A stretch of 64,000 nucleotides of DNA from Heterodontus francisci. Taxonomy: Eukaryota. Positions 13,800 to 63,529 of this stretch are shown here, piece after piece (the first letter of the stretch is position 1; each line of letters begins with the position of its first letter). Location: the NCBI RefSeq assembly GCF_036365525.1, contig NC_090372.1:74758078-74822077 (forward strand). The letters are read 5' to 3'. Position numbers and translations under genes: made by a program. Under the pieces are notes generated by a model. It did not search any database and was not told the DNA's origin. It saw only the letters and a list, made by a program, of their open reading frames with translations.

Positions 13800-13883
13800 A
13801 ACTGCAGTAATTCAGGCAGTTTCGTGTTGTAGAGATAGACTTGAGCCCCAACAACATGAAACTACCTAAATCACACGCCAGTT
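13800..13883 (-). ncRNA. MIR196B: mir-196 precursor (HoxA-linked, mir-196b locus); mature 5p at 13868-13847
   Basis: The minus strand has TAGGTAGTTTCATGTTGTTGGG, a loop, and the complementary arm ACAACACGAAACTGCCTGAA, closed by AACTG...CAGTT. It lies between HoxA10 and HoxA9 as in other vertebrates. Confidence 0.95.
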
Positions 13884-38820: not shown

Positions 38821-41800
38821 AGCAACATGAAATAACCCCGTTTATTATATATAATACATAAACATGGAAGATGCCAGTTTATTATATGTCTATAGCAAAT
38901 AAACAGGTATATTGCATATTGATATGCATCCATTGATAGGCACACACAGTACTAATAACCGCAAATATTATGCTTTGGCACGTCGTCTGTAAATTCAATA
39001 TTTGAGGTTGGATAAATGGCCTTGTTTGTGCACTATATATTTTCATTTTTTAAAAGTTCAATTCCGGTTTTATGCAATATATTGGACACATAAACGACTA
39101 AACTAGGTCTCCAATGCCACAAGTGCTCATATATATTTAATTTTTAAAGGATTCCATTTTTCGATCCATGTTGTCGGCAATGTAACCTAGTATACGCTAT
39201 TATTGTACTGTATTCTAAATGAAAGTAAAGCAACGAGTCAATTATGAGTGTACATCCAGGCAGATCTGATTTAACTAGAACCAGTTATATTACAACAATA
39301 TGGCTCCAGTTTATTTTTCATTTATAAAAACAAGTTCGACGCGGCTCAATAGTATTTGGTTACAAATTATAAAGTAAGTTCAACAATTGTATAGTCAGTC
39401 TGGCGAAATTTTATTTTAAATACTTATCGGTAGCCTTTTCAAAAATATGTATATACTGTTCATTGGGGGCGGGAGTTGGGTGGTGGGATGGGGACGGAGG
39501 ACAGCGGGGGGGGGGGGGGGGGGGTGAGGGGGGTGTGGGGGGGGGGTGCGGTTGGTGGTGGGATAGTATTAAACATCCACTGCAAGCAGTCCGTGGTTCT
39601 TCCTTGAATTCATTTTAGGCACTTTTGACGAAATATTCTTTTGTAATGATGCACACTAAACATTAGATTCACATTTTATGGTTCTTATTATTGAGAATAT
39701 TAGGTAATGGATAAATTTACTGTATGGTACGACATTAGTAAAAAACACAAAAAAATAAAGCGCATTTTGTAGTGCACATATTCAGTATCTCATACAATGA
39801 ATGATGTACGGCCTTGGAATTGATAGTGTGGCAGCAGCCGCGTGAAAAGAAACAAAATAAATCAAATAAACTGCTTTTAACAAGATAAATAAACACATCG
39901 ACTGCAAATAGAACAGTCGCTCCAAGTTAATCTAATTTGGATATAGACACAATGATGCAAATATTTGTATATTTTAAAAAAAAGTAGAGATAAGACTAGC
40001 AAAATGAAATTCAAAACTACATTGAAGACATATCCAGATCTTAATACGCCTTCGGTTCTCGACAATGGCTTCTTCGGGTTTTTTTCTAATGCTCATAGAA
40101 CGATAGACGATGTTATATAGATGATACAGAGCATAAAATCCTTAAAGTTCGATTAGTAATGCTTTGTTTCGTGTATTTCTCACGAAATGTTAAGTCTTTT
40201 GTGGCATTCTAAAGTAAAATGGGCGAGCTTCTCCGTGAGGACTGCACAGGAGACCGTTCCTGAGGCTATTTGGCAACACAAATTCAATGATCCAAAATGC
40301 ATTATCGTTTTTACAATAAACCAGGTTAATCGCTCGTGATCGCCACTGTAACTCATAAAAGTTACATTTATTTACTGTAAATAGAGATTCACAGTTCAGG
40401 ATTAATCCATTGGCGCAGAACGATTGGAAGAATTGAAAGCTAAATAATTATGTTCTGGAATGTCAGTTGCAACTGATTGCATTTTCTGCTTTGCGGTGCT
40501 TTTATAACAAAGATCACATTGACAATATGATTAATTTTACTTCAACCTTTATCTTGCAATGAAAGAATAACAAGAACCACCTCAATAATCAGAAATGTGC
40601 CATTGACTGTTCGATAGCTACGTTGAGCCTTTTACCTTTAGCACATTTTACTTAAAGCCCAAGAACGACAAAAAAAGGCCGAAAAAAGGTTTTGCACTTG
40701 ATTAATTCTTTGGGAAACATTGATAATTGTCAGTTCCATCTGTAAAATGATCTGTTTTGTTCGCACCAATCAACAATGGTTACCCATAACTAATAAAACA
40801 TTAAGTAGCTATTTCTTCCTCATCAGCGTAAATAGAAATCTTGTGATATATCTAAACTCAGTGCATCTAGAAAACAACTATAAGCGGATTATTAGACAAG
40901 CCTTGATCAGAGAGAATGCGGGTGGTTGGTTCTCTTCAAGTATTTTCCAACAAATATTGAGTTGGATTTTACAAGAGGATGCTGTGATTGGTTCGAATGA
41001 GTCATGTGATGAATGCAGAATTTTATAATCCCACAACATTTTGGCAAATCAGCTTTCATTTTCCTATAGGCAACTGTTGGATGCGGCTTAGCTTGTATTA
41101 AGAAATGACACAAGCGGAGATAAATGAATTATTTTAGCTTGGGCATTACACATTTAACATTGATCGGAATTAAATGTAACAAAAATCCATTGTTCATGTA
41201 AGCAAGCCTGCTCAGCTTAGTCGCAACTAATAATGGTAAAGGGTGCATTTCTATAATGTCCACTTTAAAAATAAAAAACAGTTTGCATGTCTATGGAATT
41301 CCTCTGTAATTCGGTATTTTTAAATGAAAATTTGAGGTGAAAAGCTACAATTTTTAGTTGATGCAAAGGTAAAAATGCAGATAAAAGTGTGTTTCTACTT
41401 TCTATAGAAAAAAAAGCTTATGGAATTTCACATATTATCCACAAGTTCGATTTGAAATGAATGTGGAGTGCATACTTAATAATTTTATCAGCACAATTCT
41501 TAAAATCTCGTATTATTTGTAACTAAATTATATAACACCACTGAAAAAAAACAGCTAAGCGATTGCTTTAGTTTTGTGAAATTACATGTTAAAATATACA
41601 ACTACTTAATCAGACACGGTGTACAGGAGTATGAAAGTGAATTGATAAACGTGGCCAACAGATTAGCAGAAGCAGATGGAAAGAGATCCAGATAAAGACA
41701 GATAGAGTGATCCAAGGGTGAATGTGGACAGACACGTTGTAGACTGATCACCATCATTAAAATAAAACTATGCATTTCACAAATGTGCTAGCGATCAAGT

Positions 41801-42197
41801 TTAGCTGATCCGTTTGGTTACTCTTTCGTTAGTTATTTTACAGCGGCTGAAATTTAAACTACCCGTGAGAAATAATTTACAAAACGCGTTACCATAGCCT
41901 TTTCCTTGATTCTATACCTTCGCGCTTGTGATTCTAGTACAATACCAAAAGCTTGGTAATTGTTTTTGGAGGTTTTATTGTTTATAATAGTGAATCATTC
42001 CTGGCGAGTCTTTGAAATTCGAACCCTTTAAATAATTTCTCTGAGCGTTTCCACAATTTAAACGATGCATAATTAGTTGTTAGTATTACTGACCTACATC
42101 TGACGGTCCTAGTTCATCCTCTGCTCGTTTACTGTTGAAACAATTACGTTTGGTTGCTCGTTTGCTCGAAGCCCGTTTAAATGAATATCCGCAGATT

Positions 42198-42214
42198 AAC
42201 AGTAGATGGCGCAA
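42198..42214 (+). promoter_or_regulatory. Candidate CTCF site 3' of HoxA13
   Basis: AACAGTAGATGGCGCAA is a near match to CCAGTAGATGGCGC. Confidence 0.5.
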
Positions 42215-43865
42215 TTGCTCTACCTTTACACTTCATGACTATTCATGAGCAGTTAATAGTCAAGGTCAAAGACTATCAGTTTTCGTCAAGGTCAAGGTTT
42301 AAGCCCCCCCCCCCCCCCCCCACCCCCCCCCACCCCACCACCACCCCACTCCTAACGCCCTGCCTCCATATTAAAACCAAAGGCAGACCGTATATTCCCA
42401 ATCAGAATATGGACAAAATATATTGCTTTTAAACTTTCAGCATATTTTAATACACGCGTAGGGATCCACTTCCAAAAAGCGTTTCTATCATGATAATCGT
42501 GATGCTTTTCCTGGTAGTCATGTTTTCGATTTGAAGCAGTAGGGAATATTCATGGATACCTTTTGATGTCAGCAAATTGCTAGATTATTTCTAGAAAATC
42601 TTTAGTACGAAAGTATGGTTTTAAGGTATTTAAACCCCTAAACAAATGGCCTGGTTAACATCAGGAATAAATCTAGCTGGCCCATATTTCTTTGCATTTT
42701 TGTTTTAAAAGCTGTTAGCTGGCGTCATGTTTCTTAACAAAAAATTCGACGCTGTTGTTTATGAAGATATTTTATTCGTGAAATAATTTGTTGTAATGCA
42801 TGTAATTCACTAGCTGAAAAAAGACAATAGGGTATACAGATTAAACAGCTGCATAATAGTAATGCCAGACATTTTAATTTCATGATTATCATTCGTGGTT
42901 TAATTTTGTAACTATTATTGGTATATATTAACTAAGTAGGAGGGTGCATGCAGATAAAACAATGCGTTATTTAAAAAAAAATACAATTGCACGCAGATGT
43001 TGTCATCTTTAGGAAGGAAGCTGTGCGCCTTAAGTCTGCGTGGAGGCTAATGCTATGTGAAGTGGGTAATATAACAAGCAGACAGAAAAGACTTAATATT
43101 TAGTTCATTTACACGGGAGGAGATGGTTTCATGATTGCAGACAGATCTTAATTCTACTCTGTAGAAAATGGCAATCTACTTTGCTATTTAATTACGAAAG
43201 GCGCGGATGCTCCTAAATATATACATAAGACGAAATGTAGAGTGCTAGAATAGTAGGTATTTAATTGTCAATATACATTGCTATTTAGAATATATTCTTC
43301 ATTCTACCTGTACATTAATATCTTTAGAGATAGCGCATCCCATCCAAAGAAAATGTAGTGCGTAAACATTTTATTATACATTTCACGATATATCCCATGG
43401 TTTACCTGAGGAAAAATTAGCATGCACTCTAGTTTTTTGTTAACCAGAACATTCTCCAGCAATACACATTTTTAGGTGCGTTGATGATGTTTATGTGAAG
43501 GCAATGTATAAATCAAATTGGTACTCTTATTCCTTTGAAGTGATATATTTTATATGCAGTAAACAATTAATTCTGTATGTTTGCTACATTTAAAAATTGC
43601 AACCCTTTAGATTCTTAATTAATGGACTTGACTTATTTTTGGCGAATATTAGTTTGCTTTAACAAAACCTTTATACAATGTCTTTCCTAGATATTTACTA
43701 GTGTGTTTATGCTTTTTTTTTAAATAAGAAAAAGCAATGAGCAGGCAGAAAGAAAAAAAATCTAGCATCAAGAAAAGGAGCTGTGGTGGGTTTTTTTTCT
43801 CCAGGCTGAGATCAGTTATTTTTAAAATTTTCAAAAGAAGTCCGAACGTTTCTGGAATTGTCGCA

Positions 43866-44110
43866 CTAGCTGTTACTTTTCAGTTTAGTAAGAACTTTCT
43901 TTTCTTTGACTCGTCTGTTTTGAAACCAAATAGTGACTTGTCTCTCAGAGAGGTTTGTTGATGCCGATATCCTCCTTCGTTTGTCCTTGGTAATGAATTT
44001 ATTGGTTGCATATTCCCGCTCAAGTTCTTTCAACTGCACTTTAGTGTAAGGCACTCTTTTCTTTCTCCCACGCCGAAAAGAGCTCGCATCGGAAGGATGC
44101 GAAACGACGT
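43866..44110 (-). CDS. HOXA13: HoxA13 exon 2 (homeodomain)
   Basis: Acceptor ttcacag|AC. Encodes [72 protein letters not shown]. Stop TAG at 43868-43866. Confidence 0.97.
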
Positions 44111-44511
44111 CTGTGAAGAGAAAAACACACCTTACCATCCATGGCATTTAGCAGCAAATAAAAGTTTAAAACCGGCAGTGTCGCCGGAGTCAAGTTCAAG
44201 ATTGCACCATGGAGATGTTATATCGACTGTACATTTTGTAATAAATTATATATCAGAAAATATAATGTTGAAAAATGCGTGAGAATTGTGGTGATTATGA
44301 AAAATTATGCAAGTTAGTATTTAGCTAGTGCACTAAACATTGAAGTTTATGATAATATAGAAGTACTTGTCTTAGAGAATTATGCATATAATTTCCTAAT
44401 ATAATCTATTTTATATACTATCCAGCTACCCATATGTATTTACACATCAGAATGTCTTGTCCCCTTTATTGCACTAGTTTCTCGTGTTAATTGTGTTTTA
44501 TCTATACTTAC

Positions 44512-45160
44512 CTGGCAGGCTCGATTTCCAGAGGTGGGTAGCTTGCGGTTGCTCTTTCGAACAGCAGACTTGACCATTCCACCCATTGGTAATTGCCCAG
44601 GGCTGGTAGCTCTCCATGGGTAATAATGTGTCGTGTCTTGGTTCCCCCGGAGCGCTGATGGTGGGAACCACAGGTACGTCCAAATAGCTGGGCATCGGTT
44701 GGTACGGCCCCGCGTAACCTTGGTAGAATGCGAACTCCTTGGCTCTGGAGGTGAATTCCTCGCCGGCGGACGTGTCCATATATTTGTCGGCAGGATAGCC
44801 AGACAAGGTGGAGGGCTGAGCGCAGGACTTAATGCTGCTATGGTGGCTCATTCGGCAGGGATAGTAACTGCTCCCAAAGTATCCATAAGGCAGGGCAGCA
44901 CTGGACGAAGTTTGAGCAGCAGGACAAGGACTACACTGTTTGACAGGTTCAGCAATACCAGACGCTGGCACTTCACTCGACGTGTAGGCAGAGCTGGGAG
45001 CTAGGGATGCTGGATGGGCCATCAAATTCCTGCATTGATTTGCTGTGAAGTTCCCTCCTGAAAATCCATCCATGTTTTTATTAATTTCATCCAAACTATT
45101 GTCGTAGACGAACATCACAGTGTCGATCCAGCGGGGATGAAGTATCACGGACGCTGTCAT
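44512..45160 (-). CDS. HOXA13: HoxA13 exon 1
   Basis: [21 protein letters not shown]...QCRNLMAHP...[13 protein letters not shown]...[14 protein letters not shown]. Phase-1 donor G|gtaagt at 44512/44511. Spliced CDS is 894 nt, 297 aa. Confidence 0.97.
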
Positions 45161-48100
45161 ATCACGTCCAACATTGAGACTAGTGGCCGTTTTAAAAGCC
45201 CCTAAGACTGAAAAGAGATACTGAGTCTCTCAGACTTAGCAGCATTGACGCGCCAGTGTCGCTGAAACTTGCCTCCTCATTGGCTGCGAGATGATCACAT
45301 GATATGCAAAGTAGATGATAAATATATGAAGAATAAAAAGGTAGGTACTCCATTAGTTTAATAAAACCACGTTTGATTATTTACGTGAACGAATGATTGG
45401 AATAAATGCATTTACTAAAACAACAAAATACCAGCGGTGCACAAAATAAGCCAGTTATGTATAAGCATCACATAGGTAGGTGTAAATGAAAACGCATGAC
45501 AAGACTGGAAAGGTAATATTTTGCCTATACACAAAACAAGCCAGAGCTAAAACTGCTGGCTTTTGCATGTAACAAAAGAAATAATTTACATAATTATAGG
45601 CTATACGACATAAATACTTTAAATTTCATGGCTGTATATTTGTGTATTTGCTTATTATGCCTGCAGTTGAGGTTACTTTTGCATAGCTGATTCTACAATT
45701 CATCTTTTTATAATCTATACCCTCTTATCGGTGAAAATGCACTTCCTTCTAATAACAGTTGCCGTTTAAGCAAAACCTGACATGTGGATGGGCTAAAACT
45801 GAACCTTTCCTGCTTTTTTGCATTTCACTACATAAATAAAATCTCAAGGTATTTTCAACCAATAAGAAAATAACATTTAAAAAATAGGTAGCAGCACCAT
45901 TTTATAGTAAAAAGGAAACATCTGTATGACCTTTGTATTGCTTCATGACATAACTCGTTAAACCAAATAGTAATAATGCCGCAGAACAGTCCGAAATTAT
46001 TCCAGAGCCTAGATTTCTTAATCCGTGATAAATAAATGCATCTTTTCACTCTGGATATAATATTTGTAATTAAACTGAACACCAGAGCAAGTTCATTAAA
46101 ATAAATCATTTTACATTTTTGAACTCAAGAGCAATGAAGTCGATTTGAATTTCCATACACAATATCCAATTAAAATGCTTTCTTGTTATAATAGCAAAAT
46201 TACTAGCCAGCCACAAATATAGATATATTTACATCAAAGGACATTTATAAGCCAGATAAGGATATTCACTAATTCTTCCTTTGCCGTTTGCCAGCCGCGA
46301 TACAACAGTATTTAAATAAATGTCAGCTTTCTTACTTCCCCCGCTAATGCAGCCGATTCGTGTTAACTTGCTTGCTGCAAAATACGTTTTCATTGAGCAG
46401 GAACAGTATTCACATAACTAGATTTCACACTGAAATATCAGTGCACATGTTTTATGACTACCCGGCACCATTTAATACATGGAAAAGGAATAAAATGTGA
46501 ATTATTTAACAATATCTACCACATTGTTAAATGTGCTAAAATCCATAAATATGATTTGTTTTATATCTATCCAGCACATTGTTAAAAGTGTTATTTGATA
46601 AATTTGAACTATATTGTAAATGCATTTGGAATGAATTTGCTGCAATTTGGCGAAAAGCATGGGGATAACCCGTCTTACTACAGTCATATGTCACATGATG
46701 AGGAAGGGTGGCTGCTGAAAATGCATAAAGTAAGCAAAAATATAGCCAATATTATTCAGCTGGCATGGGTGGTCGGAAAGGGTGATTTTTAATTCAATTT
46801 CAGTCACTTAATTGTATATCAGGTGTTGTGATAAATGAAATGAAAACCATCTCCTATCAGACGAACTCGTCAAGCTCGTTTCACCAAGTTGTTAGTCCTG
46901 TTTTTTTTCTCGAACAGGACCTAATGCCTGCAATGATGCAGCTGTTTAGAGCAATTATTTTACAAATAAAATCTTCCTATTTATTCTTTATAATTCCTCT
47001 TTCTCTCTTTTTCCTGCTTATCTCTTCCGTTCTCTTCTTTTCTTACGAGTTTTCTGTATGTTTTTACACTATTGTACTACTGGAATCATGCAATCGCTTG
47101 AGAAACAGCTACACGCCGTTCCTTCAAACTTCTTATAGATATTGGAAGTGATACGATCCTCGATGATTTAGGAGCTACTGACTATCGTTATTCAAGCAGA
47201 GACGCTGAATTCCAATTATGTTGAATATAAACATTCTCTGTCGACTAGCGTGCAATGAAATAGCGAGATTAAAACGTGTCTCCACCGTATCTCGAGATTT
47301 TCGACATGATCCGCCCTTTCGGATATCAACTGAAGGTGTTCATCGTTTTCTGGATTATAATTGTGGAAATATATCGAGATGATTTCAAAACATAAAACGT
47401 TGGAGCACAATTATGACAAGCCAAATAGGGAATTTTGATATTTTTTCTCAATATACCTTAAATGATTAACCTTTCAATTCCATGACCAACCCATACGATG
47501 GGAACTCATGCAATTTATACTTCAGTGATGATTATGTGATAAGGCAACTGGTATTCACTGACTGACAATGCTTCGTCTTCTTCACATGATTATTGGTTGG
47601 TGGGACTCTTTAGTTTGAATTTAATATAGATGGTGCAGCTTGATTTTTCCAGTGTATTATAAAAACAAATGGTCTTATTAGTATTTGTTTTTGGTGATTC
47701 AATATTTTGTAGAAGTGCATTTTTTTCACCTAACTCTCCCATGTTAATCGTTAATAGAGCCTTTTCTGCAATGCTAATCTCAGAATATACACCGAGGATG
47801 CGCCACACTTAATTGTGTAAGTCTTTTTGATTACCAAATTAAACATGAAAAAATGAGCACCGGCTGCGTCGTTTTGGATTACATTTTAACTTGAAATGCT
47901 TTTGAACAACAGCTTTACACGGAATCGTATTTAATTCTCCATTCTTGAGTTAAGAGAAGGCTGCCCCTCCCCCAACAAATTACATGTTAAATTGAAGCTA
48001 AAATTCGGCTGCAGACTTAAGTGATAGGTAGAACCGCTAGTGCCTTCCACTGATAAGAGTACTTGTGCTATGGGATGTATGTTTTCAAATACAAACTGTA

Positions 48101-50137
48101 ACATATTCAAACGGCCACATTGTCGATTCTACTACAAAATGGCAGCAACCAAATGGGCAGCTCTTTTACATACGGGTTAGACACGGCTAAAGGCCAAGGT
48201 CAAGTTGAAAGTTGCAGTCTAGCCGATGTGAGTGCTGTCATTCACGCGTTGACGACCTGTCTGAATTCTTATAAAGGCAAGCCGTGAGAATTGACTTTTC
48301 ATTGCCGTTTTGTTTGTTTTCTTTTGTTTTCCACTCACAGCCCTCCAAATGAAAAAAAGATTCCACTGACTATACCGTCTTCATTTCCAGGCTGTTTCTG
48401 CATGGCTGGCAAAAGGATGTGAAATGGATGCAGTCGTTTTAAGATACATTGCAAATTATATAGCATAGCATCCGGTTTAAATGCACTGTTTACAAAACCT
48501 CTTGTTTTGAGCTGACTGTTTGCACCAGAGGCCCGTCAATATTATTGGAAAAGATAGAGGCATTCTGTAGAAGATAAAACAACTGCCTTAATGAATAACA
48601 CGCCAAAGTATTGAGGGTCGTACTGTGGTGTAAGGTGTTATCTCCAAGGCATGGTTTCAAACTATTTACAGATCGGGACATCACCAATAAGAAGTAACTG
48701 TCCAGAGAGGTACTGTAACCTGCTATTCCGGATCTGCTCATGAACTGTAATGAAGCCATCTTTAGAACGATAATACAAATAAATCTTTTTTGTAATTATT
48801 GTCTGTTATTTCGTTTAATAAGCTCAGTATAGGTGCTTTCAAATGTATTATAGAACACTCATGCTAAAGCAGTCAACGTCCTAATCTGCTCTGTGTTATC
48901 AGCTTAGTTGTGCTTGTTCTGTTAGGCTTAAATTGCGAAAAATATATTGGGGCGCTTTTTGTGTGTCTGAAATCAAACCGGTCGCTGGGGTAAAACTACG
49001 TTGAGTGAGAACATATACATGGCTGTACACATTGGTTCATAATTTGGTGTGGCCTAAACATGCCCAACTGTTGTTCTCCCAATAAAAGGGAATTCGTATT
49101 TTGATTCATATTTATTGCATCAACATAGCGTTAAAATATTCAAGCTTTTGGGATCACCGAGATCTTGAAATGCCATTTTTACCTCATGAAAATAATTACG
49201 TGACCGAGGAAGCTTGTGTATTTTAATCCCCAAATTCTTCATTATGGATGTCAGTCCAGTCAAATGTCTCTGTATATTTTGTCAGTCGTGATTCCTTGGA
49301 GCAATAAGGCTTTAAAAAATATTTGTTCAACATAAATTTGGCAGCAAATAACATAGAAATGATATATTAACCGTACAGCTGTTAAAACTGGAACTTTTCC
49401 TACTTGTTAAGCTATCGTCCAAGAGTAACAGAATTAAAATATTTTCTGCTAATTTTATCTGTGGATGTTATACAATAGGTTTAAACTACAGTGTGGATTC
49501 AATTTTTCATATCAAAGAACTAAGCTGACTAAAATGCATTTGTTTTAACATCAGAAGACCCCATTTGTGGCAATTTTAAGGACTTATATTGCACATGTTC
49601 TCAAAGTTGCTATTTAATTTTGCATGATTGCCAGCCTAATACGCTTTAAAAGGAAATGGCATCCACATACTCCAGGAAATGGCATGTTAACATGCATTTA
49701 ACATTTTCATTATTTGTTCCCTTCATTGTCAATAAAAAATACGAATAATATGTAACAATTTAATGGCTAATTTAAATAGACAACTTAAGAGGTGCCGTTT
49801 TGATTTCTGATTTTTTTTTAACCACGTTTATCATTCACAACACTTATACTCCAGTATCAGTGCTCTTTCACTTGCTGTTGCTACCAGTATCTCAAAGCAA
49901 TGTCTTAGACAAAACAAAGAAACTCTTTACTCTTGCATTTCACTATTATAGATGTATTACTTTAGAATTATTTCTAGGCTTTGGACAATTTAATCACAAT
50001 AAATGATTATATTATTGCAATGATCATTTCATAAAACAATTACATTATAGCATGTTAACCATGAGTCTTAAGAATCGTATATGGAATAATTATGCAGTTA
50101 TTAGATTAACACCGGCACCGCAACAAACCAGTACGTA

Positions 50138-50506
50138 GGGAGGCGATGGCGCAGTGGGAATGTGACTGGGCTAGTAATTCAGAGACCCAAGCTACTGATC
50201 TGGGGTCATGGGTTCGAATCCCACCATGGCAGATGGTGAAATTTGAATTCAATTAATATGGGAATTCAAAAGCTAGTCTAATGACCAAGAAACCATTGTC
50301 GATTGTTGTGAAAACCCATTTAGTTCACTCATGTCCTTTAAGGAAGGAAATCTGCTGCCCTTACCTGGTCTGGCCTACATGTGACTCCCACAGTAATATG
50401 ATTGACACTTAACTGCTCTCGGCAGTGGCCTAGCAATTCAGTTCAAGGGCAATTAGGGGTGGGCCTAACCAGCGATGCCCACATCCCACAAAAACGAATA
50501 AAAAAA
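50138..50506 (+). mobile_element. Near full-length tRNA-derived SINE
   Basis: Pol III A-box TGGCGCAGTGG (50147-50157) and B-box GGTTCGAATCC (50211-50221). About 370 bp, ending in ...GCGATGCCCACATCCC...GAATAAAAAAA. A second copy of the same tail is at ~60261-60335. Confidence 0.85.
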
Positions 50507-51658
50507 GCCTGCCAAACATTTCATATTATTTTTCCTGAAACATTTCGTAATTCTATTCTGGAGCCCGACTGAGAGTTATCAAAATGATTAATCAATTTCG
50601 TTGTCCATAAACTGCTTAATTAACAATATCATAACATACATGTCATTAAATATATTCAAACTACAGATAGGATATAGTTCCTTGTATCTCTTTATTCTAG
50701 CACATCTCGAATACATTCAACCATCATTGTGACTGCTGACTCATGACACGCACCATTGACCAACTGCCTCAGACTAACTCTGTAGATGTATCATATCCTT
50801 GGAGAACAACTTGTTACTTATGAGAATATGTGTTGGCATACCTGGCCATATCAAGATTTCATATGTGTTTATATCACTTCAATTAATCAAGCTGTTTCAG
50901 AATACAATATAACTAATATTTTGCACATATTTTTGCGTTGGCTGCATTGATCAATGGCACAAACCCATAGACAATATGTTAAGAGGTTAACAAACTTCGT
51001 TTTTCACATTTGCTGATGTCAGTCCATCATTTGATATAAGATGCTGTTTATTTTTATCAAATGCAATTAAAAATACAAAATACTGTATTTGAATTGGAGT
51101 CAGTGACATCATTGAATTGTTAGTGCGTATTTGATTAGGTTCCTCACATTGGTGGGAGCAGCTTACGCTTTTGATTATACCACTTTTATTATGCAAAGTA
51201 GGTGTGTATATTTATTATGCTAATATTACAAAATAAAATTGCATGAACAGTTGCATAAAAAGTAAGTCAAATGCATCGCAACAATTGTTCATGAAACTGT
51301 TGCAATATACTTACCACCAACATTATAAAAAGGTAATGAGATCATTAGCGAGAAGATATGCTTTTGTAAAAGGTTAAAAAAAAAATCACTTTTTACGAAG
51401 TATTTTCTAACTTGCTAACAAAAAACAACGTAAATTTTTGTTCAAACTAGAAGAAAACAGGAAATGTGCAATGATAAACTTAGAATCGTTCTTATTTATA
51501 ATTCTACTCAAAATTTGTCTCTAATTTAAATTGTTTGGAACCAGTCGATGTCATTGTAGATAACGTTGTTTAACGTCAAAAGACTATTTGCATATTTCCT
51601 GCTTTAAACCGAACTACGTTGACTCTTCCTCGTTTCTGGCACCAGTTGTCAACAATTG

Positions 51659-51802
51659 TCAAAAATATTTACATAAAAAGATATTGAAATGTAAAGGTCC
51701 GGTTTCAGCACTGCAGCCCACAACTAAAATATTCATTCCAGTTTGCTGGCGGCAAATGAGCCTTTTCTGTTGCTAATACTGAGCTTGAAACCAAATTTTT
51801 AC
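51659..51802 (-). pseudogene. HOXA14: HoxA14 pseudogene exon 3 (3' part of the split homeobox)
   Basis: An intact acceptor ttctctttatag|GTA is followed by VKIWFQAQY*QQKRL (cf. PG14 VKIWFQNQRQKEKKL). In-frame TAG at 51775-51773. Confidence 0.9.
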
Positions 51803-51900
51803 CTATAAAGAGAAAATGTTACAGTAGTGGACTCCCATGAAAAAAAGCTCATTATTTATTTGCGTCCGCCTGGAACATTTTTCATTGCGAATCTCCTAGC

Positions 51901-52085
51901 CTGTTGTTCTGGTAGCCCTAGTTTTGCAACAATTATTTTTGCAGTTGTCATATTTCAATCGCCAGAAAGCAAGTTTCCTCGAAAGCGATGTTGTGCAGTC
52001 TGGGGTTTTCTATGATAAATTATTTTCTTCCTCTGTGTGTACTGAGCTCGTGGGTGGGCAGACCAGGGTGAATGAACACTCGGGG
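51901..52085 (-). pseudogene. HOXA14: HoxA14 pseudogene exon 2 (5' part of the split homeobox)
   Basis: Phase-1 acceptor tttacag|CC. Reads QRKKIIYHRKPQTAQ / IAFEETCFLAIEI*Q / IIVAKLGLPEQQ (cf. PG14 RKKRIPYSK.QI.ELE.AFEENRFLTPEIR.NIS.KLGLTERQ), with two frameshifts and one stop. The donor has decayed to GCTAGG. The 98-nt intron falls between Q44 and V45. Confidence 0.9.
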
Positions 52086-53035
52086 CTGTAAACGAATAAT
52101 ATCCCATTATTCGATTCAACTATTTTCATCATATTATTAATTATGTACAACTTTAGTAATATATGAAGAAAACGTCCCTCGTTTTGACTAAATGCATATA
52201 ACATTCCATAGTGATACTTTCTACATTATAAAACCCCAAAGGCATTAAGTATGTACAATGAATGCAAGTAACATTTTCCAGTACACAAATGTATGTGCAG
52301 ATATCAGCCTTGTGATAACTTCAATTTATGATCACAAACCATGAACCTTCTGTAAACTACTGCTACCCAAAACTCTACAAATGGGTTTAAATTCATTTAA
52401 GACAAGTATCTCTTCAAGTCGACACCAATGCACGCATGCACGAAGATGCAATCATTATACGAAGTTAAATATGTATTCCTCTTTAAACGACAAATGCCAA
52501 AGTTCATGGTTTGTAGGCATATAATATCAATAGATTTAAAGACATATGAATCAACACTAACTGGAAAACAAGAAAAAATATATTGTTGCACTGCAATATA
52601 ACTGCTGTCCACACTATATGAACCCAACGTTTCTTACATTTAACAAGTACAATGTCAAAGCTAAATATTAAAGTTGTTTTACTATAATACATTCTAAATG
52701 CTTGCAATTGCGAGACGTGAATTTATTTTCACTCCTTAACAAGACATATCATTTATTTGTTCTCCTCTAACGCCGCATCGTTTGCATGGGAAGTATTTTC
52801 TATTGTACTCTGTAACTCTATTGCATATACCTGTTACGTGCCAAATAATAAGTGATATATTTAATACTAAATGACTATTTTACAAAAACTGTTTTCTGTC
52901 GGTGTTGTTTACATCTATGAAGATAAGCTAGATATAAGTGTTCCAAATCAAGGTGTCTTGGTAGTGTTTGCTGTTTATTGCTTTGAATTTTCATCCCTAA
53001 TATTTTATTCCTTATTCTTATCAAACATACAGTGT

Positions 53036-53096
53036 CATGAAGGCACAGAAGGAGGCCGTTCGGCACATTGAGTTTATGCCCGCTCTATGTAGAGCA
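53036..53096 (-). mobile_element. Short CR1-type LINE/SINE 3' tail fragment
   Basis: Minus strand ...ATGTGCCGAACGGCCTCCTTCTGTGCCTTCATGAC resembles the CR1/HER1 3' terminal stem-loop. Confidence 0.6.
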
Positions 53097-54315
53097 GATA
53101 TGTGAAAACAATTTGCTGAAAGGTATTATTTCCTCAACATTTTTCTATTTTGTTTCTAGGAATGTATTTTAATTAAAATGTACTCACCACGTTAACAAAC
53201 CATTAATCCTGGGGGGACCGACATATTGTATATTTTCAATTAATGGGCTATTTTCTTATTTAAGGTGCATTTCAACAAGCAACAGGAAATTCTATTTATA
53301 CGCGAATATTATTCCTTTAAAATCAATTCACCGGATGCTTAGGAACAATTTACACTATGACACTGAATATTTAAACAAACGATCTCCTCTGTGACTGGCT
53401 TCGGCTATCTGTATAAACATATCGAAACACACATCTGCACATTTTCGTTCACAACTGCCTCGGAAAGTCTTCAAAGACTTTTATAAGTTTCAGCGATAAA
53501 GGTAGCATAAAAGGATGATCGGTTAATTTTCTCTTTCTCCAGTCTGTAAGAAAAATGTTTCCCGAGCAGTAACAAACATCTCGTCACCCTCCCAGTGAAC
53601 TGTTTAAAAATTATGTCATACATTATGTCGTAAAATGATAATCTGTTAATATTGTTTAGGGCACTTGAGTGGAGCATAGTATCAACATAAAGTTTTACTG
53701 TCGCTTTTAGACTGAAGCGTTTCTTTTTGTCAATTTATGATGCCCAAATGCAACACACTGTCAACATTATACCACACACGATCTTAATCGTGAACTGGGT
53801 TCTCCGTTGCTTCACGGAGGTAGAGACTGCAACATTCAGCAGATATTTAAAATGAAGTGTTCCACACCCAAAATTAACAACGTATACACGAGATGACTCG
53901 CATCAGGCAGTACAGACATTAAAAACTCAACTTACATTATATTTGATATTATGCAAAGGAGAGATAAGGCTATGAGAAGGCGCAAAATTATTGTACAGTT
54001 TTTTCCTGGCTATTTTATGGATGTGGAATTATGTTAGTATATATTATGTTAGTATGAAATTGATCTGTATATATTTCTGCAAATTATCACCCCAGGGATT
54101 TCATTTTGTCGGTTTAGTCAACTATCTGTTTATCGAATCATTCTAAATTATGCTTAGCATAATAACGTTTTGATTGCAAATGTTATAAAATTGATCAGAA
54201 ATTGATCCCGTCACTTCAACTAGTTCTGTTAGCAAGCTCCAACAGACTTAAGGAACGAGGGTTATTAATTACTCCTTGGCTACCCTCACGTCTGGTTCAT
54301 TCGAATCCGTCTTAC

Positions 54316-54780
54316 TTTGACCAGTGAGATTAAAGGGTCGTGGGAATGCTATAGCTTCCTGATAAGCACGGCTGACCCCTACATGTTTAGCCCATACACA
54401 GGTCGGAAAAGGAGTTTTCGGATAAAATGACAACTCATAACTACACAATGACGAAACTGCAGAAAACGGGATCACAACCGGGGGGAATCAGTGCTAAACT
54501 TGAAACGCGCGCGGGAAAGGACTATGTCTGACATTCAGTGATGAAGGAGAAAAAATAATGTACATATATTCCAGATTACCAGGCGAGATCATTTCTGTAT
54601 TTGCCCTTGTAGTGACACAGCTTTCCCACTAGATGTCTGCAGAGTTAATTGAAGATATTCAAGAATATTATTATTCCTTGAATTTTGAGTCTTGTCTCCA
54701 AAGATTGCGGTCATTGAGTGATCTTGGTACTGAATCTGGCTGTATCTAGGTAAACAGCAGCTATGTGTCGAACGCAATCT
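54316..54780 (-). pseudogene. HOXA14: Candidate HoxA14 pseudogene exon 1 (5' limit uncertain)
   Basis: SPGNLE at 54586-54569 (cf. PG13 PGYLD) and ECQT*SFP at 54536-54513 (cf. YQPW). An open frame then runs to a phase-1 donor CAA A|gtaaga at 54316/54315, which matches the phase-1 acceptor at 52085. Confidence 0.5.
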
Positions 54781-57700
54781 TTTACTATGCTACAAAAAGC
54801 AATCATTCTTGTCACAGGATATATATATTGCACCTACGCAAATGGTTCATTTTATTACAGTGTATGTGTTTAAATAGCAAGGTAAAACCGTAAACACGCC
54901 TCTGGTTAAACTTTAATCTGTTCGAGTCAAGGACACTGAGGCGGCAACCGCACTTACATTGCCAGATGCCAAGTGTGATTCGAGATCAAAATTGCTACTT
55001 GCATCGAAGTCCAGAAGCACATTTTTACCTTCGAACATATTTGTGCAGTTTACATAACGTGGGTCGAGCTGAGTATATGAAATATAGTGGACAACTGTAT
55101 CTGGTCCAGCTAATTTAGTACAGAGACGTGGGAGGCTTGAGATTTATTGGTCATTACAATGGGCAATGCACCTTGGCTTTCTTCAAAGACACCTACATTA
55201 GACTTTTGAACAAATATTTAGTCTCTAAGTCATAAAATGTTTAGTATCGAAGAAATGCAGTGTCCTTGGTGCCCTGGGCTGGTTTAAACTCGCTAAAGCA
55301 GTTGTTCCCCGCCCTTCCTGTAGTTTTTAGTTCACATTGCCTGCTCTCTTGCCCAGTGTCCATCTATTCAAATAAATCCAAATATTTATGTAACACGTTC
55401 ATACGGTGACGAGGATCTCACACTATTTTCGACCGAAATTGGTAACTTGGCTTTCAGATTTATTCCTTTTGTAACTGCAGCCGGAAAGCGCAGCCATCGC
55501 CCACACTGTATGTGGCTACAGCATGATTTCATTTAGGCTTTAGGCCTAGTTTTAATTAATTTTAGTAAAGTAAATTATTGCCGAATACCTAAAAGAGCAA
55601 CACTAGGTAAATCAAAAATTCCCTTTACCAATAAAGAGCTTAAAAACGTTTTTATAGAAGTAATTCAAATTTCGTCCATCTGCATCTCAGTTTTGGAAAT
55701 TCCAAAACAAATTGAAAACTTATTTTCTCGAAATTTATATAGTGTCTTGAAACTAATTCACTGAATTATGTAGCGTCTTCATTTTTTTCTGATCCAATGA
55801 CTCCATTATACGAACTCGTAACAAATTAAACTTTTGGCCTATATATAATCATGTACCCACACTAAAGCGTAACACAGAATCAGCATCAGCGCATCAACTG
55901 GGCGATTAGATTTTGCTGCTGTTTGTTTCTGACTGCATCTGACCACGTATTGCAAAATGCTCCTCTCCTCCCGTTTTTGTTCGACTACGGGGAACGTGCT
56001 GCTTCGCAGAAACTCGAAACATATCAGTTGAAACGTGGGTGCAAGGGCAAACAAACTTGCAGCTGATTGGCTGAAAGGCATTCAACTATCTCAGGAAGGT
56101 GTTTTATTGCCACTGTTATGAGCAATCAAGAGCAAAGGGCACGATGTTGAGATTATTGATCCTTCCATCATCGATGATATTTCTTACCGGCAACAGCCGA
56201 GCAGATAACTCGCACAATCTATCAATATTTGGCGGGTTCCGCTCTATCAATCCAATCCAACAGTGTTTTTCTGTGCTCACATATTCATTGCAACAATATG
56301 TGAGCTGCTTACTGAATGATTGTTTTAAAATAATTATTTTCATGGCCTATATGTTGCATTCACATTTCCGAGAACTTACTAATCCCATCATTTCATGTTA
56401 CGCTCGTAAAATCTTTAAACGAATGGAATTTGGAGTTCAAACGTGTGGTAACTTCCACACTGCTATGCACCCCAGGAAGTCAAAAATCTCTTGAGTGAGT
56501 GTGCTACCATTAAAGACTATAAAAAGCTCTAAAAGCTATGAATCATTGTTGAGATTAATGTCAGCATATAGCGTAAATGAAATTGGACTATTTCAGCTTT
56601 GTATTTGATCATTGTGGATATGTTAAAGTTACATTCTACATATTACACAGCGATAAATCGCCGTATGCTATTGATTTGTATGTCCTGTGGAAATTCTGTG
56701 TTATACTTGTAGCACACAGAAAAATATATTTCCACTGCTTCGAGATGACAATTAAACATCATTAGACGTAACTCGGGAGAATGCAGCTCCTTTCTGCTAT
56801 GCAATAACCACTTAATGCCTTTGTGAAAATGCTACCGTGTGAAGCACAAGATCCCCCAGTAACAAGCACCGAGTTCTCTGATAGGTAAGTTATGGTTTGT
56901 TCTTACATTTTTACAATGTAACTAACTAACTTGTAGATTTTGCAAGGCAGGCGAACTTGGATAAATAGGCGTGCCTTAATTAGTTTAGGCGGAGATGAAA
57001 ACCAGTAAAAAACTGGTCAGTTTCACAACTTTAGAGAACTTTTTACACTTGAATAATTTACTTGTGCATTGTGCTCTGAAATTATATATATTTTTTAAAA
57101 AGAGGAACTCGTATTTTTCCCTCAACACCTCTTAAATTAGACCGCCGCTCAAAATGGTCGACAATCAAATCACAGCCCACCTTTTCGATTGTTCGCAGTC
57201 TCTTAAAATTCTTTTTCTTATAAGTTAATGTAAATGACCTCTACTTTATTTCAGTTGGTTCCTAAAGAAACAACCCGAATTCCGCTTTGTATGCTGTAGT
57301 CTTCATTTGTCTGATATATTACCTGAATTATTTCAATGGTGTTTCACTTTTGAAAAAAATAGGATTGTGTCACTATCATGCTCTTGTAGCCCAACAGGAG
57401 TCGCACGGTTTATCAACACTAATATAACATTAATTAACCCAAGAGTCGGCAAGTTTGAATTGTTCGTTTCAATTATAACGACGTGCAACAACTCCCCAAA
57501 AAATTATTCGTTATGAAAAAAAGTAAACGTCTCTGATCAGAGCAGTTTAATTGGCATGAGGAAGATGTGTATTACGGTACTCGTCGGTTCTGCGAACTGG
57601 GGTTCATTTCCATTAACGTGGTTCAACAGTAGGGGGAGCACAAAGACAGCGAGTGATACCTGGGTTCAGATGGAGGCTCTGTCGCGCAGGAAGCACAGAA

Positions 57701-58401
57701 ATGGATAGAGCTTTGGTTGTCTTTCGAAAACGATACAGACAAGCAAAGGCTCATGTGTGCCCGCCTTGTTCTTAATTCTGCGGTAGCATGCTCACAGGTC
57801 TTATTTAGTCTTGAAATTCTTTAAACAAGTGTATAAATATTACCTTTTAAGTCTCCTTGTTTCAAGATTATTTCAAGGGGAATTCATTGTTTCACGGCCC
57901 ACTGTAATTCAAAACGGAGGATATTATAAGAAAAGCATTTGTTGGGGTCAAATTTATTGTTGTCATTCCTGTGTTGACGCGTTATGTGCTTTGTTATAAT
58001 GCACAGCGTGCAAAGTAAGTCTATATATTATATAAATGGCAATTATGTATATATGTTGCCATTTCTCTTTTCAACTGTTGGAGAAATGATCTTTGGTAAC
58101 AGATATACACTTCTTTCAATTACAAAGATTAGGATGGAATCTCAAGGCACCAAACGCTCTTGAATCGTGCCCATTTCACTGTTTATCTGTCAGCAGCTGT
58201 TACAACAGGGAACTAATTAAGCGTGTACAATTAGTATCGACCCAGAGGGAAGACGGCTAATACCCAGCCAATCTTATACGCCAGATACTGAAAGAGTATC
58301 AGGGGACAGGATAACTGGTACTCAGCCACTCTCATACACAGATATTGCAAGAGGACCAGATAGGGGGTACTCAGCCAATCTCACACACGGGTGTTGCATT
58401 A

Positions 58402-58542
58402 ATATAGCACTTTTAACATAGGGAAACGTCCCAAGTTGCTTCACAGGAGAAATATTGACACAGAGCCAAAGAAGGACAAGTGATCAAAAACTTGGTGAAA
58501 GAGATAGGTTTAAAGTAGCGCCTTAAAAGAGGGGGAGAGGTA
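58402..58542 (-). mobile_element. L2-type LINE 3' end fragment
   Basis: The minus strand ends GTGAAGCAACTTGGGACGTTTCCCTATGTTAAAAGTGCTATA, resembling L2-clade 3' termini. Confidence 0.55.
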
Positions 58543-58545
58543 GAA

Positions 58546-59820
58546 TGTGGTTTTATGAAAGGGAAATGGTGTTTGACAAATTTATTAGAGTTCTTTGAGG
58601 AGGTAACAAGCAGGGTGGATAAAACGGAACCAGTAGATGTAGTGTCTTTGGATTTTCAAAAGGCATTCAATAAGGTGCGACAGAAAAGGTTACTGCACAA
58701 GATAAGAGTTCGGGGTGTTGGTGTAATGTATTAGCATGGTTACAGAATTGGCTAACTAACAGGAAACAGAGTATTGGAATAAATGGGTCATTTTCAGATC
58801 GGCAAACTCTAACTAGTGGGGTGCCACAGAGATCAGTGCTGGGTCCTCAACTATTTACAATCTATATTAATGACTTGGATGGAGGGATAGGGTGTATTGT
58901 AGCCCAATTTGCTGACAATACAAAGATAGGTAGGAAGACAAGTTGTGAGGAGGACATAAAGAGTCTGCAAAAGGATATAGATAAGTTAAGTGAGTGCGCA
59001 AAAATTTTGCAGATGGAATATAATGCGGGAAAATGTGAGGGTGTCCACTTTGGTCGGAAGAATAGAAAAACAAAATATTTAAATAGAGCGAGACTACAGA
59101 ATGCTGCAGTACAGAAAGACCTGGGTGTCCTTGAACATGAATCACAAAAAGTTAGCAAGCAGGTAGAGCAAGTAATTAGAAAGGCAAATGGAATGTTGGC
59201 CTTCATTGCAGCGGAGAAGGAGTATAAAAGTAGTGAAGCCCTGCTACAACTGTACAGGGCATTGGTGAGACTACACTTAGAATACTGCATAAGTTTTGGT
59301 CTCCTTATTTAAGGAGGGATGTACTTGCAATGGAGGCAGTTCAGAGAACATTCACTAGGTTGATTCCTGAAACAAAGGGGTTGTCTTATGAGGAAAAGTT
59401 GAGCATGTTGGGCCTCTACTCATTGGATTTAGAAGAATGAGAGGTGATTTTATTGAAACATATAAAATTCTGAGGGGGCTTGACAGAGTAGTTGCTGAGA
59501 TGATGTTTTCTCTCATGGGGAAATCTAGAACTGAGGTACAGTTTCAGAGTAAGGGATGGTCCATTTAAGATGGAGATGAGGAGGAATTTCTTCTCTCAGA
59601 GAGTCATAAATCTTTGGAATTCTCTATTTCAGGGAGCAGTGGAGGCTGGGTCATTGAATATTTTTAAGGCTGAATTAGACAGATTTTTGATCTACAAGGG
59701 ATTCAAGGGTTATGGGCGGGGGGGGGGGGGGGGGGGTGGCGGGGGGGAGGTGTGGGTGGGGTGGCGCAGGAAAGTGGAGTTGAGGCCATGATCAGATCAA
59801 TCATGTTCTTATTGAATAGC
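58546..59820 (+). mobile_element. 5'-truncated, decayed CR1 (L3) LINE: reverse transcriptase and 3' end
   Basis: Reads GFMKGKWCLTNLLEFFEEVTSRVD..VDVVSLDFQKAFNKV, GVPQRSVLGPQLFTIYINDL, FADNTK, LYRALVRLHLEYC and RRNFFSQRVINLWNSL, with frameshifts. Confidence 0.93.
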
Positions 59821-59823
59821 AAA

Positions 59824-59888
59824 GCAGCATTTACCCTGTTAAGCCCCCTCAGAATCTTATATGTTTCAATAAGATCACCTCTCATTCT
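59824..59888 (-). mobile_element. Inverted CR1 fragment
   Basis: Reverse complement of the RMRGDLIETYKILRGL segment that is also present forward at ~59434-59496. Confidence 0.8.
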
Positions 59889-60260
59889 TGGAGTATAAGA
59901 CAATCTCCTGGAAGGAGTTTAGTGCACTCGGTTGTAAGATCAGGAACTGGCAACTGAACTCAACTGTTATTTCTGCCTCACCATGCATCCTGAAGTTGCT
60001 TCACATCCACACAAAATGACAGGATAAGTTCATCCTACAGCATATGAAAACCACTTAACTAATGTTCAACCAACCCCATACACAAGACCCTGGAACAGTG
60101 CCATTGGACCAGATAGAGATGTACCCAACCAATCTCATACACAAGGTACTGGAAAATATTAGGGAGCCCTATACCTTGATACCCAAGCAACCTCACGCAC
60201 TAAACTGTGATCAGGGGCTAGCTAATGACCCATCAGTATCATATGCCATACATCAGATAC

Positions 60261-60335
60261 AAGGGCAATTATGGACGGGCAACAAATTCTGACCTTGCCA
60301 GCGATGCTCATGTCCCAGGAATCAATAAAATAAAA
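60261..60335 (+). mobile_element. 3' tail fragment of the same family as the SINE at 50138-50506
   Basis: AAGGGCAATTATGGACGGGCAACAAATTCTGACCTTGCCAGCGATGCTCATGTCCC...AATAAAA. Confidence 0.7.
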
Positions 60336-60548
60336 GGAAGAATATAAAGGCTCCCATACTAATCTCTGGCTAATCGCATATACAAGATCCTGAAATGAAA
60401 TTAGATAACTAATACTCAGCTAATTTCAGAATTTAGGCTATGGCAGATTGTACAGATCTACAGGGCTAATTGGTATCTAATGTCACAAAGTACACAATGA
60501 TATAGTATTAAGGGATAATAGAACTGATACTCATTTCCCAGACACAAG

Positions 60549-61256
60549 GGGCTGAATTTTACTGGGATGGTTGAGGTCCTGCTGCCGGAGCCGAAAGCAC
60601 AAGGCGACCCAGCTTAGGCCGGCGGTGGGACCCAGAGAGGCATCTTCCCAGCAGTGGCCAATTAAATGGCCACCACCGGGGCTGCCATCCCTGTGAATAG
60701 GAGGACCACAAGCTTAGTGGCCTCGCAGTGCCACTGCTAGTGATGGCAATTGCTGCGGCTGCACCTGCAGAATGAGGTGCATTGATGGCCGTGCTTCCCC
60801 AAAGACAGGTAACTGGGGTCTGTGGATACCGGGGCCAGCCTGGTATGCCCTGGTGATTGGTTGGGGGGAGGGGGTGGTGTTGCGGAGGGCAGGCAGTGCC
60901 ATTGCCACAGGGGGCAGCCATAACTGCTGGGCGACCGCTCCGCGAGCTCAAAAGGAGGGGCTCCCCCTATCCTGGAGCCTGCTTGGAGGCGGCCAGGATT
61001 TACTGGACAGTCTCCCTACATGATGATGCCTCCCCCCACCGCTGCCAAAATGCCTGCAGAGGCAGGGAGAGGCCCTTAATTGGTCACTTAAGTGACTCAA
61101 CTGGGCTCCCAGTGGGCGACACATCTGTCATTTTGCCAGCAGTGGGAAAACATCAGGCACGCCCCCCTTCCCCCAACCTCCTGACACTTTCCCACCCCAT
61201 TTTGCCAGCTTTCCCACCTCCCAGTCCATTACCAAGTGCCTGGTAAAATTCCAGCC
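60549..61256. mobile_element. GC-rich non-autonomous DNA transposon (MITE-like) with short terminal inverted repeats
   Basis: Left end GGGCTGAATTTTAC; right end GTAAAATTCCAGCC (reverse complement GGCTGGAATTTTAC). The ~700-bp GC-rich interior has sharp compositional edges and no transposase ORF. Confidence 0.7.
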
Positions 61257-62209: not shown

Positions 62210-63529
62210 AGAACCGTTTAAAAATTCAAAGAATGCTGGACCTCACAACAAAAGGTATCAAATTTAAAAGCAAGTAAATAGTAGAGTGCTAGTTGGATCT
62301 GATTTGAAATATTGTGTTTAGTTTTGTACACTTTCTATGCATTGGGAACACCTTATACATGCATTGCTGTTCTTCTTGTAGTAACTACTATTGTAGTTAT
62401 TGTTGTTGTAACTGCTGCTGCTATCATCTTGAGCTTTTTGAGCCAGGATCTGATATACTTCCATGGATCTCACAAGGAAAAAGGTGGTCCATTCAGCTTC
62501 AAAATGTGAGACTTGCCTTGGTTGAGGTGAGAAATGCTCTGATTGTCATTTCCCTTTTTGTTTTGTCATATCATGAATGTTTTGTGCCTTCATTAATATG
62601 CAACTCTTCAAAATTGGTTCAATCAACTTAAAAGTGAGCAATGCTATATTGCTTCATTTCAAAAAATAGTCAAGGGTAAGGATGAGATATTCCCAAGTAA
62701 AATGCTAACTTTGAACCATAGATGGGAATAAATCAATTTATGGCCCACAAATAGTTTTTATAATTATCTGCTTAATAGCAGGTTATATTATTCTTATCAG
62801 TCCAGATTAATTAGTTACATTTATGAAGGGAAAAAGATAATGTCATGAAAATCTGTAGTCAATATAAATGAAGAATAAGCACATTATGTAATGCTAATGG
62901 GAATTGCTTATGAATGTGACTTATACATCCAATGATAATGGAGATCAGGTGTGAATGAGGATTAAGTATAGTACTAAATGACAGTGCACTATGCACAGAT
63001 TTAGTTGGGAATATCTCATCCTTACCCTTGACTATATCAGCCATTCTTCGGAAGCAACACTCTTGCTTAAGATTTTTTGAAATGAAGCAATATAGCATTG
63101 TTCACTTTTAAGTTGATTGAACCAATTTTGAAGAGTTGCATATTAATGAAGGCACAAAACATTCATGATATGACAAAACAAAAAGGGAAATGACAATCAG
63201 AGCATTTCTCACCTCAACCAAGGCAAGTCTCACATTTTGAAGCTGAATGGACCACCTTTTTCCTTGTGAGATCCATGGAAGTATATCAGATCCTGGCTCA
63301 AAAAGCTCAAGATGATAGCAGCAGCAGTTACAACAACAATAACTACAATAGTAGTTACTACAAGAAGAACAGCAATGCATGTATAAGGTGTTCCCAATGC
63401 AAAGAAAGTGTACAAAACTAAACACAATATTTCAAATCAGATCCAACTAGCACTCTACTATTTACTTGCTTTTAAATTTGATACCTTTTGTTGTGAGGTC
63501 CAGCAGTCTTTGAATTTTTAAACGGTTCT
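62210..63529. repeat. Long near-perfect inverted repeat (arms 62210-62696 and 63005-63529)
   Basis: The arms are reverse complements over ~490 bp, with a few substitutions and a ~37-bp indel near 63036-63072. The spacer is ~310 bp. Confidence 0.95.

Follow-up and report, generated by a model that had tools for sequence, protein, structure and literature searches.

A decayed HoxA14 gene upstream of HoxA13 in the horn shark, with indirect signs of a spliced non-coding RNA in a close relative

Hox genes of paralogue group 14 (PG14) are defined by three exons and by the sequence WFQNQR in helix 3 (PMC3509897), and their homeobox is split by the second intron at a conserved position; a homeobox intron is also present in lamprey Hox13beta and in some amphioxus genes, so it is not sufficient alone (PMC3707753). 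Lungfish HoxA14 is covered in PMC3038165 and PMC7875771, and the accessible text of PMC1845163 and PMC4778128 holds nothing further on A14. PMC3509897 names Powers and Amemiya 2004 and Ravi et al. 2009 as the sources for PG14 pseudogenes in cartilaginous fishes; A and B Hox14 pseudogenes are known in elephant shark (PMC3707753), and the bowfin has a hoxd14 pseudogene which is non-coding yet transcribed and spliced (PMC8423624). Here we describe a locus in 64,000 nucleotides of the horn shark, Heterodontus francisci (contig NC_090372.1; hereafter the window, to which all positions refer), in which the 5' part of the HoxA cluster, with HoxA9, A10, A11 and A13, lies on the minus strand. Upstream of HoxA13 we found a unitary HoxA14 pseudogene, and a spliced RNA of this pseudogene quite likely exists in a close relative. 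A HoxA14 pseudogene of the horn shark, that is, the same locus, was reportedly described by Powers and Amemiya in 2004, and our remnant is very probably the published one, a relic of a known kind. This agrees with the first-pass annotation, made from the sequence alone, which had called the locus probably not new; Hox14 pseudogenes of cartilaginous fishes have indeed been published (PMC3509897, PMC3707753).

The HoxA14 identity, the three-exon plan and the pseudogene status proposed in the first-pass annotation were all upheld by protein matches and trees. The three exon remnants follow each other in order on one strand (Table 1), and 3/3 HoxA14 proteins used as references matched exons 1, 2 and 3 in that order. 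These were the proteins of Latimeria (P0151, 'Hox-D12-like'), Neoceratodus (P0152, 'HoxA14 homolog') and Protopterus (P0153, 'Hox-B9a-like'), of which P0151 and P0153 were assigned to HoxA14 because they grouped with P0152. A search of cluster representatives contributed no PG14 protein to the set used. Source names were mostly misleading throughout the Hox14 proteins P0135-P0153 (Hox-B13a-like, Hox-D12-like, Hox-C8-like, hhex-like and others). The coelacanth and lungfish genes resemble the pseudogene in cluster position, exon order, exon-1 sequence and a common clade (100/100); however, they are intact, whereas in the horn shark copy every exon is broken and the homeodomain residues N51 and R53 are changed. 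The HoxA14 pseudogenes of cartilaginous fishes, as in elephant shark (PMC3707753), represent the same gene with the same fate. The genome's own HoxD14 shares with the pseudogene three exons, a phase-1 first intron, the homeobox intron between Q44 and V45 and some words of upstream sequence, but it has an open frame and GT donors, and its exon 1 is weakly similar to that of the pseudogene.

The 98-nt homeobox intron between Q44 and V45, reported by the first-pass annotation, was found at 51900-51803, and the genome's HoxD14 has an intron of 169 nt at the same place. Exon 2 is 185 nt long vs 182 nt in HoxD14, which is the sum of two breaks, one of net -5 near 51990 and one of net +8 near 51950-51934 that includes the stop codon TGA 51950-51948. 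The frameshift-aware score of this exon (86) was reached by 0/60 dinucleotide shuffles, the shuffle maxima being 36-39 over the tests of exons 1 and 2. In helix 3 the sequence WFQNQR has become WFQAQY, with the diagnostic Q kept and N and R lost, as expected of a decayed copy, and N51 and R53, the altered residues, belong to the recognition helix. All PG14-like residues listed in the first-pass annotation (AFEE..FL..EI, KLGL.E.Q, WFQ.Q) were found; its lesions, a deletion of ~5 nt, an insertion of ~8 nt, TGA and TAG stops and a decayed donor, were each borne out, and both acceptors that it had called intact proved to be so.

Exon 1 resembles the HoxA14 N-terminus, a likeness on which the first-pass annotation had let its exon-1 candidate depend. 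In tblastn, 3/3 HoxA14 proteins matched 54592-54278 from their own first residue (E 1e-7 to 5e-9), with ~31-37% identity to the coelacanth and lungfish proteins, and the start aligned with HoxA14 is the ATG at 54592. Frameshift-aware alignment gave HoxA14 scores of 103-112, with lower values for the genome's own HoxD14 (41), sturgeon (32), lamprey (28) and HoxA13 (26); the HoxA14 scores of 103 and 112 were reached by 0/60 dinucleotide shuffles (maximum 39) and the score against HoxD14 by 1/60, which is a weak similarity. An ATG at 54714 was rejected as the HoxA14 start, as its 41-codon frame stops before 54592 and holds a remnant of an N-terminal extension. When this remnant (54663-54601) was compared with the N-termini of two chondrichthyan HoxD14 proteins, the scores were 40 and 45, with 0/500 shuffles reaching either score, and its comparison with paddlefish (130/500 shuffles) and lamprey (41/500) was not significant. 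Exon 1 carries lesions that were absent from the first-pass annotation, namely TAG 54496-54494, TGA 54490-54488 and a frameshifting deletion of ~52 nt near 54277. HoxA14 proteins have 27 further residues before the first intron where the window has 30 nt; the last ten codons of this short stretch are similar to those that close HoxA14 exon 1, and a phase-1 GTCTGT comes next (GTCGGT in HoxD14). From the length difference and the likeness of the exon ends we therefore infer the deletion and a probable ancestral donor after 54248, with the position of the first HoxA14 intron taken from HoxD14 rather than from HoxA14 DNA. The exon-1 donor of the first-pass annotation, at 54316, is in phase 1; however, it is not the retained ancestral donor, since it lies inside the exon-1 remnant and the HoxA14 similarity continues to 54278, and it is more likely to be a newer site. 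In total, the remnant has four stops, three frameshifting indels and a dead intron-2 donor, and no open homeodomain frame. With stops or frameshifts in every exon, it therefore cannot encode a homeodomain protein.

For the trees, the read-through sequence of the pseudogene was used. The homeodomain tree of 50 rows placed the pseudogene inside PG14 (99/97), and not in PG13 or a non-Hox class, the placements which the first-pass annotation had named as fatal to its proposal; in a tree of 37 rows, from which 12 anterior/ParaHox rows and one echinoid row were dropped, PG14 had a support of 100/98. When the homeodomain was tested alone (85 columns, long branch), neither a PG13 placement (p=0.065) nor one with D14 (p=0.42) was rejected by approximately unbiased (AU) tests. 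The test against PG13 not being significant, the case is therefore carried by exon 1, by the position of the intron and by synteny. After the addition of exon 1, the full-length tree with 15 PG14 rows joined the pseudogene with the three HoxA14 proteins at 100/100, and placement with D14 was rejected (p-AU 0.039). The homeodomain tests are what would favour a different origin of the locus, as a decayed tandem duplicate of HoxA13, a translocated HoxD14 copy or a chance likeness, but HoxA13 has no homeobox intron and, like HoxD14, falls far below HoxA14 in the exon-1 scores, the full-length tree speaks against HoxD14, and none of the 60 shuffles reached the observed scores. We consider any such origin extremely unlikely.

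The position of the locus is that of a HoxA14 orthologue, on the Hox strand, 5' of HoxA13, which lies 6.5 kb downstream, and before the presumed Evx1. The latter name was given by position to an Evx-like exon ~108 kb upstream of the pseudogene on the plus strand, the second match of an Evx2 exon-1 query (33% identity; there was no other such match). In the whole genome, a PG13 homeobox was present in four clusters and a split PG14 homeobox once, on contig C7, where it belongs to the intact three-exon HoxD14 (L031; P0135). The homeodomain search, with 150 of the 177 candidates scored, gave 76 matches, and the one PG14 exon recognised among them was that of HoxD14. Further Hox14 remnants were sought with eight PG14 proteins in ~40 kb upstream of the PG13 gene on C33, in ~30 kb on C51 and in 20 kb past the window; only three weak matches (E 0.18-0.40), judged to be due to chance, were obtained. 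At the DNA level, the segment 51700-52100 of the pseudogene had a single match in the genome. Together, the ancestral locus, the introns and this single match identify the locus as a unitary HoxA14 pseudogene.

The first-pass annotation also suggested a residual spliced non-coding RNA with a junction between 54316 and 52085. We compared contigs of four of five sequencing runs (X1-X4; presumed RNA) over 41000-60900. X1 and X2 represent one sample, from an organism which differs from the window by ~2% in non-coding pieces and is a close relative; the HoxA13 intron 44111-44511 was absent from their contigs, therefore both runs contain spliced RNA. A contig of X1 (record 5; 852 nt, depth 6.6) covered 51400-52085 with 161 letters left over, and one of X2 (record 12; 481 nt, depth 6.7) covered 51771-52085 with 160 letters left over. 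Both stopped exactly at the exon-2 acceptor at 52085 and both retained intron 2. On the minus strand, the two letters beyond this end (52086-52087) read AG, and on the plus strand they form no GT. Interpretation of the contig end as a plus-strand donor was rejected, as the nearest GT of that strand, at 52088, would end the piece at 52087. The product of depth and leftover length predicted a value of 1.61 for X1 and 1.61 for X2 in the bin 54280-54943, where 1.6 and 1.61 were seen, whereas a donor at 54248 would predict 1.29 in this bin and ~0.32 in the bin 53616-54279. The latter bin and the bin 54944-55607 had no cover in X1 and X2, which is not proof. On this arithmetic, the leftover letters therefore most likely lie wholly within 54280-54943. 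There, the donor at 54316 conforms to 5/7 consensus positions and is the best of 37 GT sites in 54230-54799 (four others score 4), so that it is most likely the donor of the RNA, as judged from depth rather than from a visible junction. Thus, the proposed RNA has gained indirect support in a relative from contig ends and depth. The RNA predicted in this way has a longest open reading frame of 31 codons, or of 41 if it starts by 54800.

In X3 and X4, no cover was present in the bins 51624-52287 and 54280-54943; HoxA13 cover was almost nil too, so these runs are uninformative on expression. The long pieces of X4 had 0 differences from the window. Repeat-derived stretches at 50150-50400, in part of 52952-53615 (inside intron 1) and at 58550-60270 were conspicuous by their very high contig depth in each of X1-X4.

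The supporting contigs come from one sample of another species, a contig end cannot show where a transcript starts, and an acceptor-like polypyrimidine-CAG is located near 54457, close to the contig 5' end deduced from depth. The pseudogene could accordingly be silent in the species of the window, or the contigs could be parts of a longer read-through transcript which begins at a more distant upstream point and uses the old acceptor. We regard this as very unlikely, because the window itself retains both an intact acceptor at 52085 and an intact donor at 54316, and the motifs in common with HoxD14 are located 300-650 nt upstream of the old start. The existence of a spliced pseudogene RNA in the close relative, as said above, appears quite likely. 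The bowfin hoxd14 pseudogene (PMC8423624) would be a parallel to it, although it belongs to the D cluster of a ray-finned fish and has kept WFQNQR and the split-homeobox junction, whereas the horn shark remnant has lost the motif and the intron-2 donor; the bowfin transcript is highly expressed and was demonstrated by cloning and in situ hybridisation, while the shark RNA is indicated indirectly by two contigs of low depth. In the open literature on Hox14 we found no report of transcription of a shark HoxA14 pseudogene, and what we found on the HoxA14 pseudogenes of cartilaginous fishes makes no mention of exon 1, its donor or transcription; most subscription papers were outside reach, so this is not proof of novelty.

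Between HoxA13 and the pseudogene, a HOTTIP-like antisense transcript runs toward the 3' end of the pseudogene. A contig of X1 (record 2) joins 45338 to 48339, with GT-AG signals only on the plus strand, and 48339 is also the end of an X4 contig that has 0 differences. Read-through of the pseudogene into HoxA13, considered for the X1 contig, was rejected on account of this strand. An Rfam match to HOTTIP_2 at 48160-48298 (E 2.4e-15; 67.4 bits, below the gathering score of 80) lies inside the intron 45341-48340. HOTTIP is listed for bamboo shark in a review table (PMC8293171), therefore the HOTTIP-like RNA is of a known kind. On the other side of the pseudogene, a piece at 56583-56884 on the plus strand may be a further non-coding exon directed toward Evx1: a perfect plus-strand donor follows 56884, where contigs of both X1 and X2 stop, and the X1 contig has 450 further letters.

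Upstream of the old start, words of 16, 11 and 9 nt are shared with the HoxD14 upstream region in the same order, and a blastn match at 55191-55224 had E 0.011; its banded exact-word score was reached in 3/1000 shuffles, with the region picked post hoc. For the whole upstream stretch, the local-alignment score against HoxD14 was reached by 12/200 shuffles, and the DNA-level matches to HoxD14 were no better than shuffles for exon 1 (142/200), intron 1 (35/40) and intron 2 (182/200). In Rfam, the stretch 51400-55200 had no family match at E up to 1.

We consider it probable that the locus is a unitary HoxA14 pseudogene with a residual spliced RNA that is a by-product without function. Besides the homeodomain-only tests, several observations weigh against this. 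The authors of PMC2746220 did not believe Hoxa14 to be present in skate or horn shark; this statement fits gene loss and lends no support to a recognised remnant. The donor of the RNA is deduced, and the GT sites at 54580, 54533, 54383 and 54290 in the same bin could also serve; the RNA support comes from unstranded contigs of the one diverged sample and not from the species of the window. The survival of the upstream words shared with HoxD14 counts in the same direction, as a weak, post hoc argument. Finally, the segment 51771-52085 differed between the species by 1 substitution in 315 nt vs 99 in 4833 nt across six further non-coding pieces (p ~0.013; one post hoc test on one sample, with one of the six piece counts obtained by subtraction).

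The last two points may indicate that the promoter or RNA of the same pseudogene was retained because it serves regulation at the 5' HoxA end, as a cis-acting long non-coding RNA or as a converging transcription unit that restrains the HOTTIP-like RNA or modulates HoxA13. The shared words have stayed collinear although the coding part drifted by 1.1 changes per residue, a spliced RNA seems to exist, and its 3' part, which reaches 51400, comes close to cover compatible with the plus strand, whose end at 51231 adjoins an AATAAA at 51232. For the bowfin hoxd14 pseudogene, which is spliced and expressed in specific domains, a regulatory role was raised by the authors (PMC8423624). However, the relative's contigs carry 6 gap letters relative to the window over the seemingly constrained exon 2-3 core, the substitution test was one of several possible, the score of the upstream stretch as a whole was reached by 12/200 shuffles, and Rfam gave no match for 51400-55200. 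We find such retention unlikely, and any function of the RNA or of the locus seems doubtful to us. In its fullest form, the dead HoxA14 would have been co-opted as a conserved non-coding unit with the old promoter and a new donor, its RNA converging tail to tail on the HOTTIP-like transcript and helping to regulate 5' HoxA. This is unlikely; were it true, it would be the second independent Hox14 pseudogene still transcribed, after bowfin hoxd14.

HoxA14, the ohnolog of the intact HoxD14, has thus decayed at its ancestral site, with HoxA13 on one side and the presumed Evx1 on the other. According to the by-product reading, which we prefer, the old upstream region of the pseudogene may still drive low transcription on the Hox strand. 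The old exon-1 donor being weak, splicing would proceed from a stronger internal donor, most likely 54316, to the intact acceptor at 52085, and intron 2 would be kept because its donor is dead. The product would be a non-coding RNA of at least ~850 nt that most likely has no function of its own and arises incidentally, because the locus sits in the active 5' end of the HoxA cluster.

Table 1. Features of the HoxA14 pseudogene and its surroundings in the window
Feature	Position	Strand	Details and basis
Exon 1 remnant	54248..54592	-	ATG 54592, stops, ~52-nt deletion, probable ancestral phase-1 donor after 54248; tblastn, shuffles, exon-end comparison
N-terminal-extension remnant	54601..54663	-	as in shark/ray HoxD14, out of frame with ATG 54592; score vs shuffles
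GT donor inside the exon-1 remnant (54316 donor)	54310..54315	-	most likely donor of the present RNA; consensus and depth
Intron 1	52086..54247	-	intact AG acceptor; 2162 nt from the probable ancestral donor, 2230 nt from 54316
Exon 2 remnant	51901..52085	-	homeodomain residues 1-44; net -5 and net +8 frameshifts, TGA
Intron 2	51803..51900	-	98 nt, splits the homeobox; donor decayed to GC, acceptor intact; unspliced in both pseudogene contigs
Exon 3 coding remnant	51698..51802	-	VKIWFQAQY, then TAG 51775-51773
Presumed 3' part of the RNA	51400..51697	-	same X1 contig as exons 2-3 (X1 record 5)
16-nt word	55209..55224	-	identical and collinear to one upstream of the genome's HoxD14; possible shared regulatory motif
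11-nt and 9-nt words	54906..54936	-	common with HoxD14 upstream; possible promoter remnant, weak alone
HOTTIP-like antisense transcript	45341..50225	+	GT-AG intron 45341-48340, then an exon starting at 48341; X1 contig joint, splice signals, Rfam
HoxA13, intact	43869..45160	-	downstream neighbour; protein comparison

The HoxA13 of the window is identical to horn shark HoxA13 (P0127) in 216/216 and 81/81 residues, and the remaining 14 of the 15 cartilaginous-fish proteins compared have 2-12 differences in exon 1. Between HoxA10 and HoxA9 a mir-196 gene (13804-13877, minus strand) was found above the Rfam gathering score, as expected. An inverted repeat at 62210-63529, with arms of 458 nt that are 99% complementary and 404 nt apart, is unusual so near a Hox cluster and is perhaps a young foldback, a transposon insertion or an assembly feature. 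HoxC was described as seemingly lost in elasmobranchs in a 2013 paper (PMC3707753). The fourth Hox cluster of this genome (G000:C51:118195-222538) has PG13, 12, 11 and 10-like homeoboxes, is spread out and more diverged, and is presumably HoxC. Shark HoxC genes were reported later.

The pseudogene shows that the ancestor of jawed vertebrates possessed HoxA14 as well as HoxD14 and that, of these two genes, sharks retained one and lobe-finned fishes the other, which has already been published. Our additions are modest: an exon-level map that includes exon 1, an assignment to A14 by a sequence tree besides position, and the hint of a spliced RNA. The possible RNA is the only new element, and a precedent for it has been published in bowfin. 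If the RNA holds, two independent dead Hox14 genes would still be transcribed, and this would offer a cheap test of whether Hox14 loci persist via promoters or RNAs that serve the 5' end of the cluster, or only via the slow decay of shark genomes.

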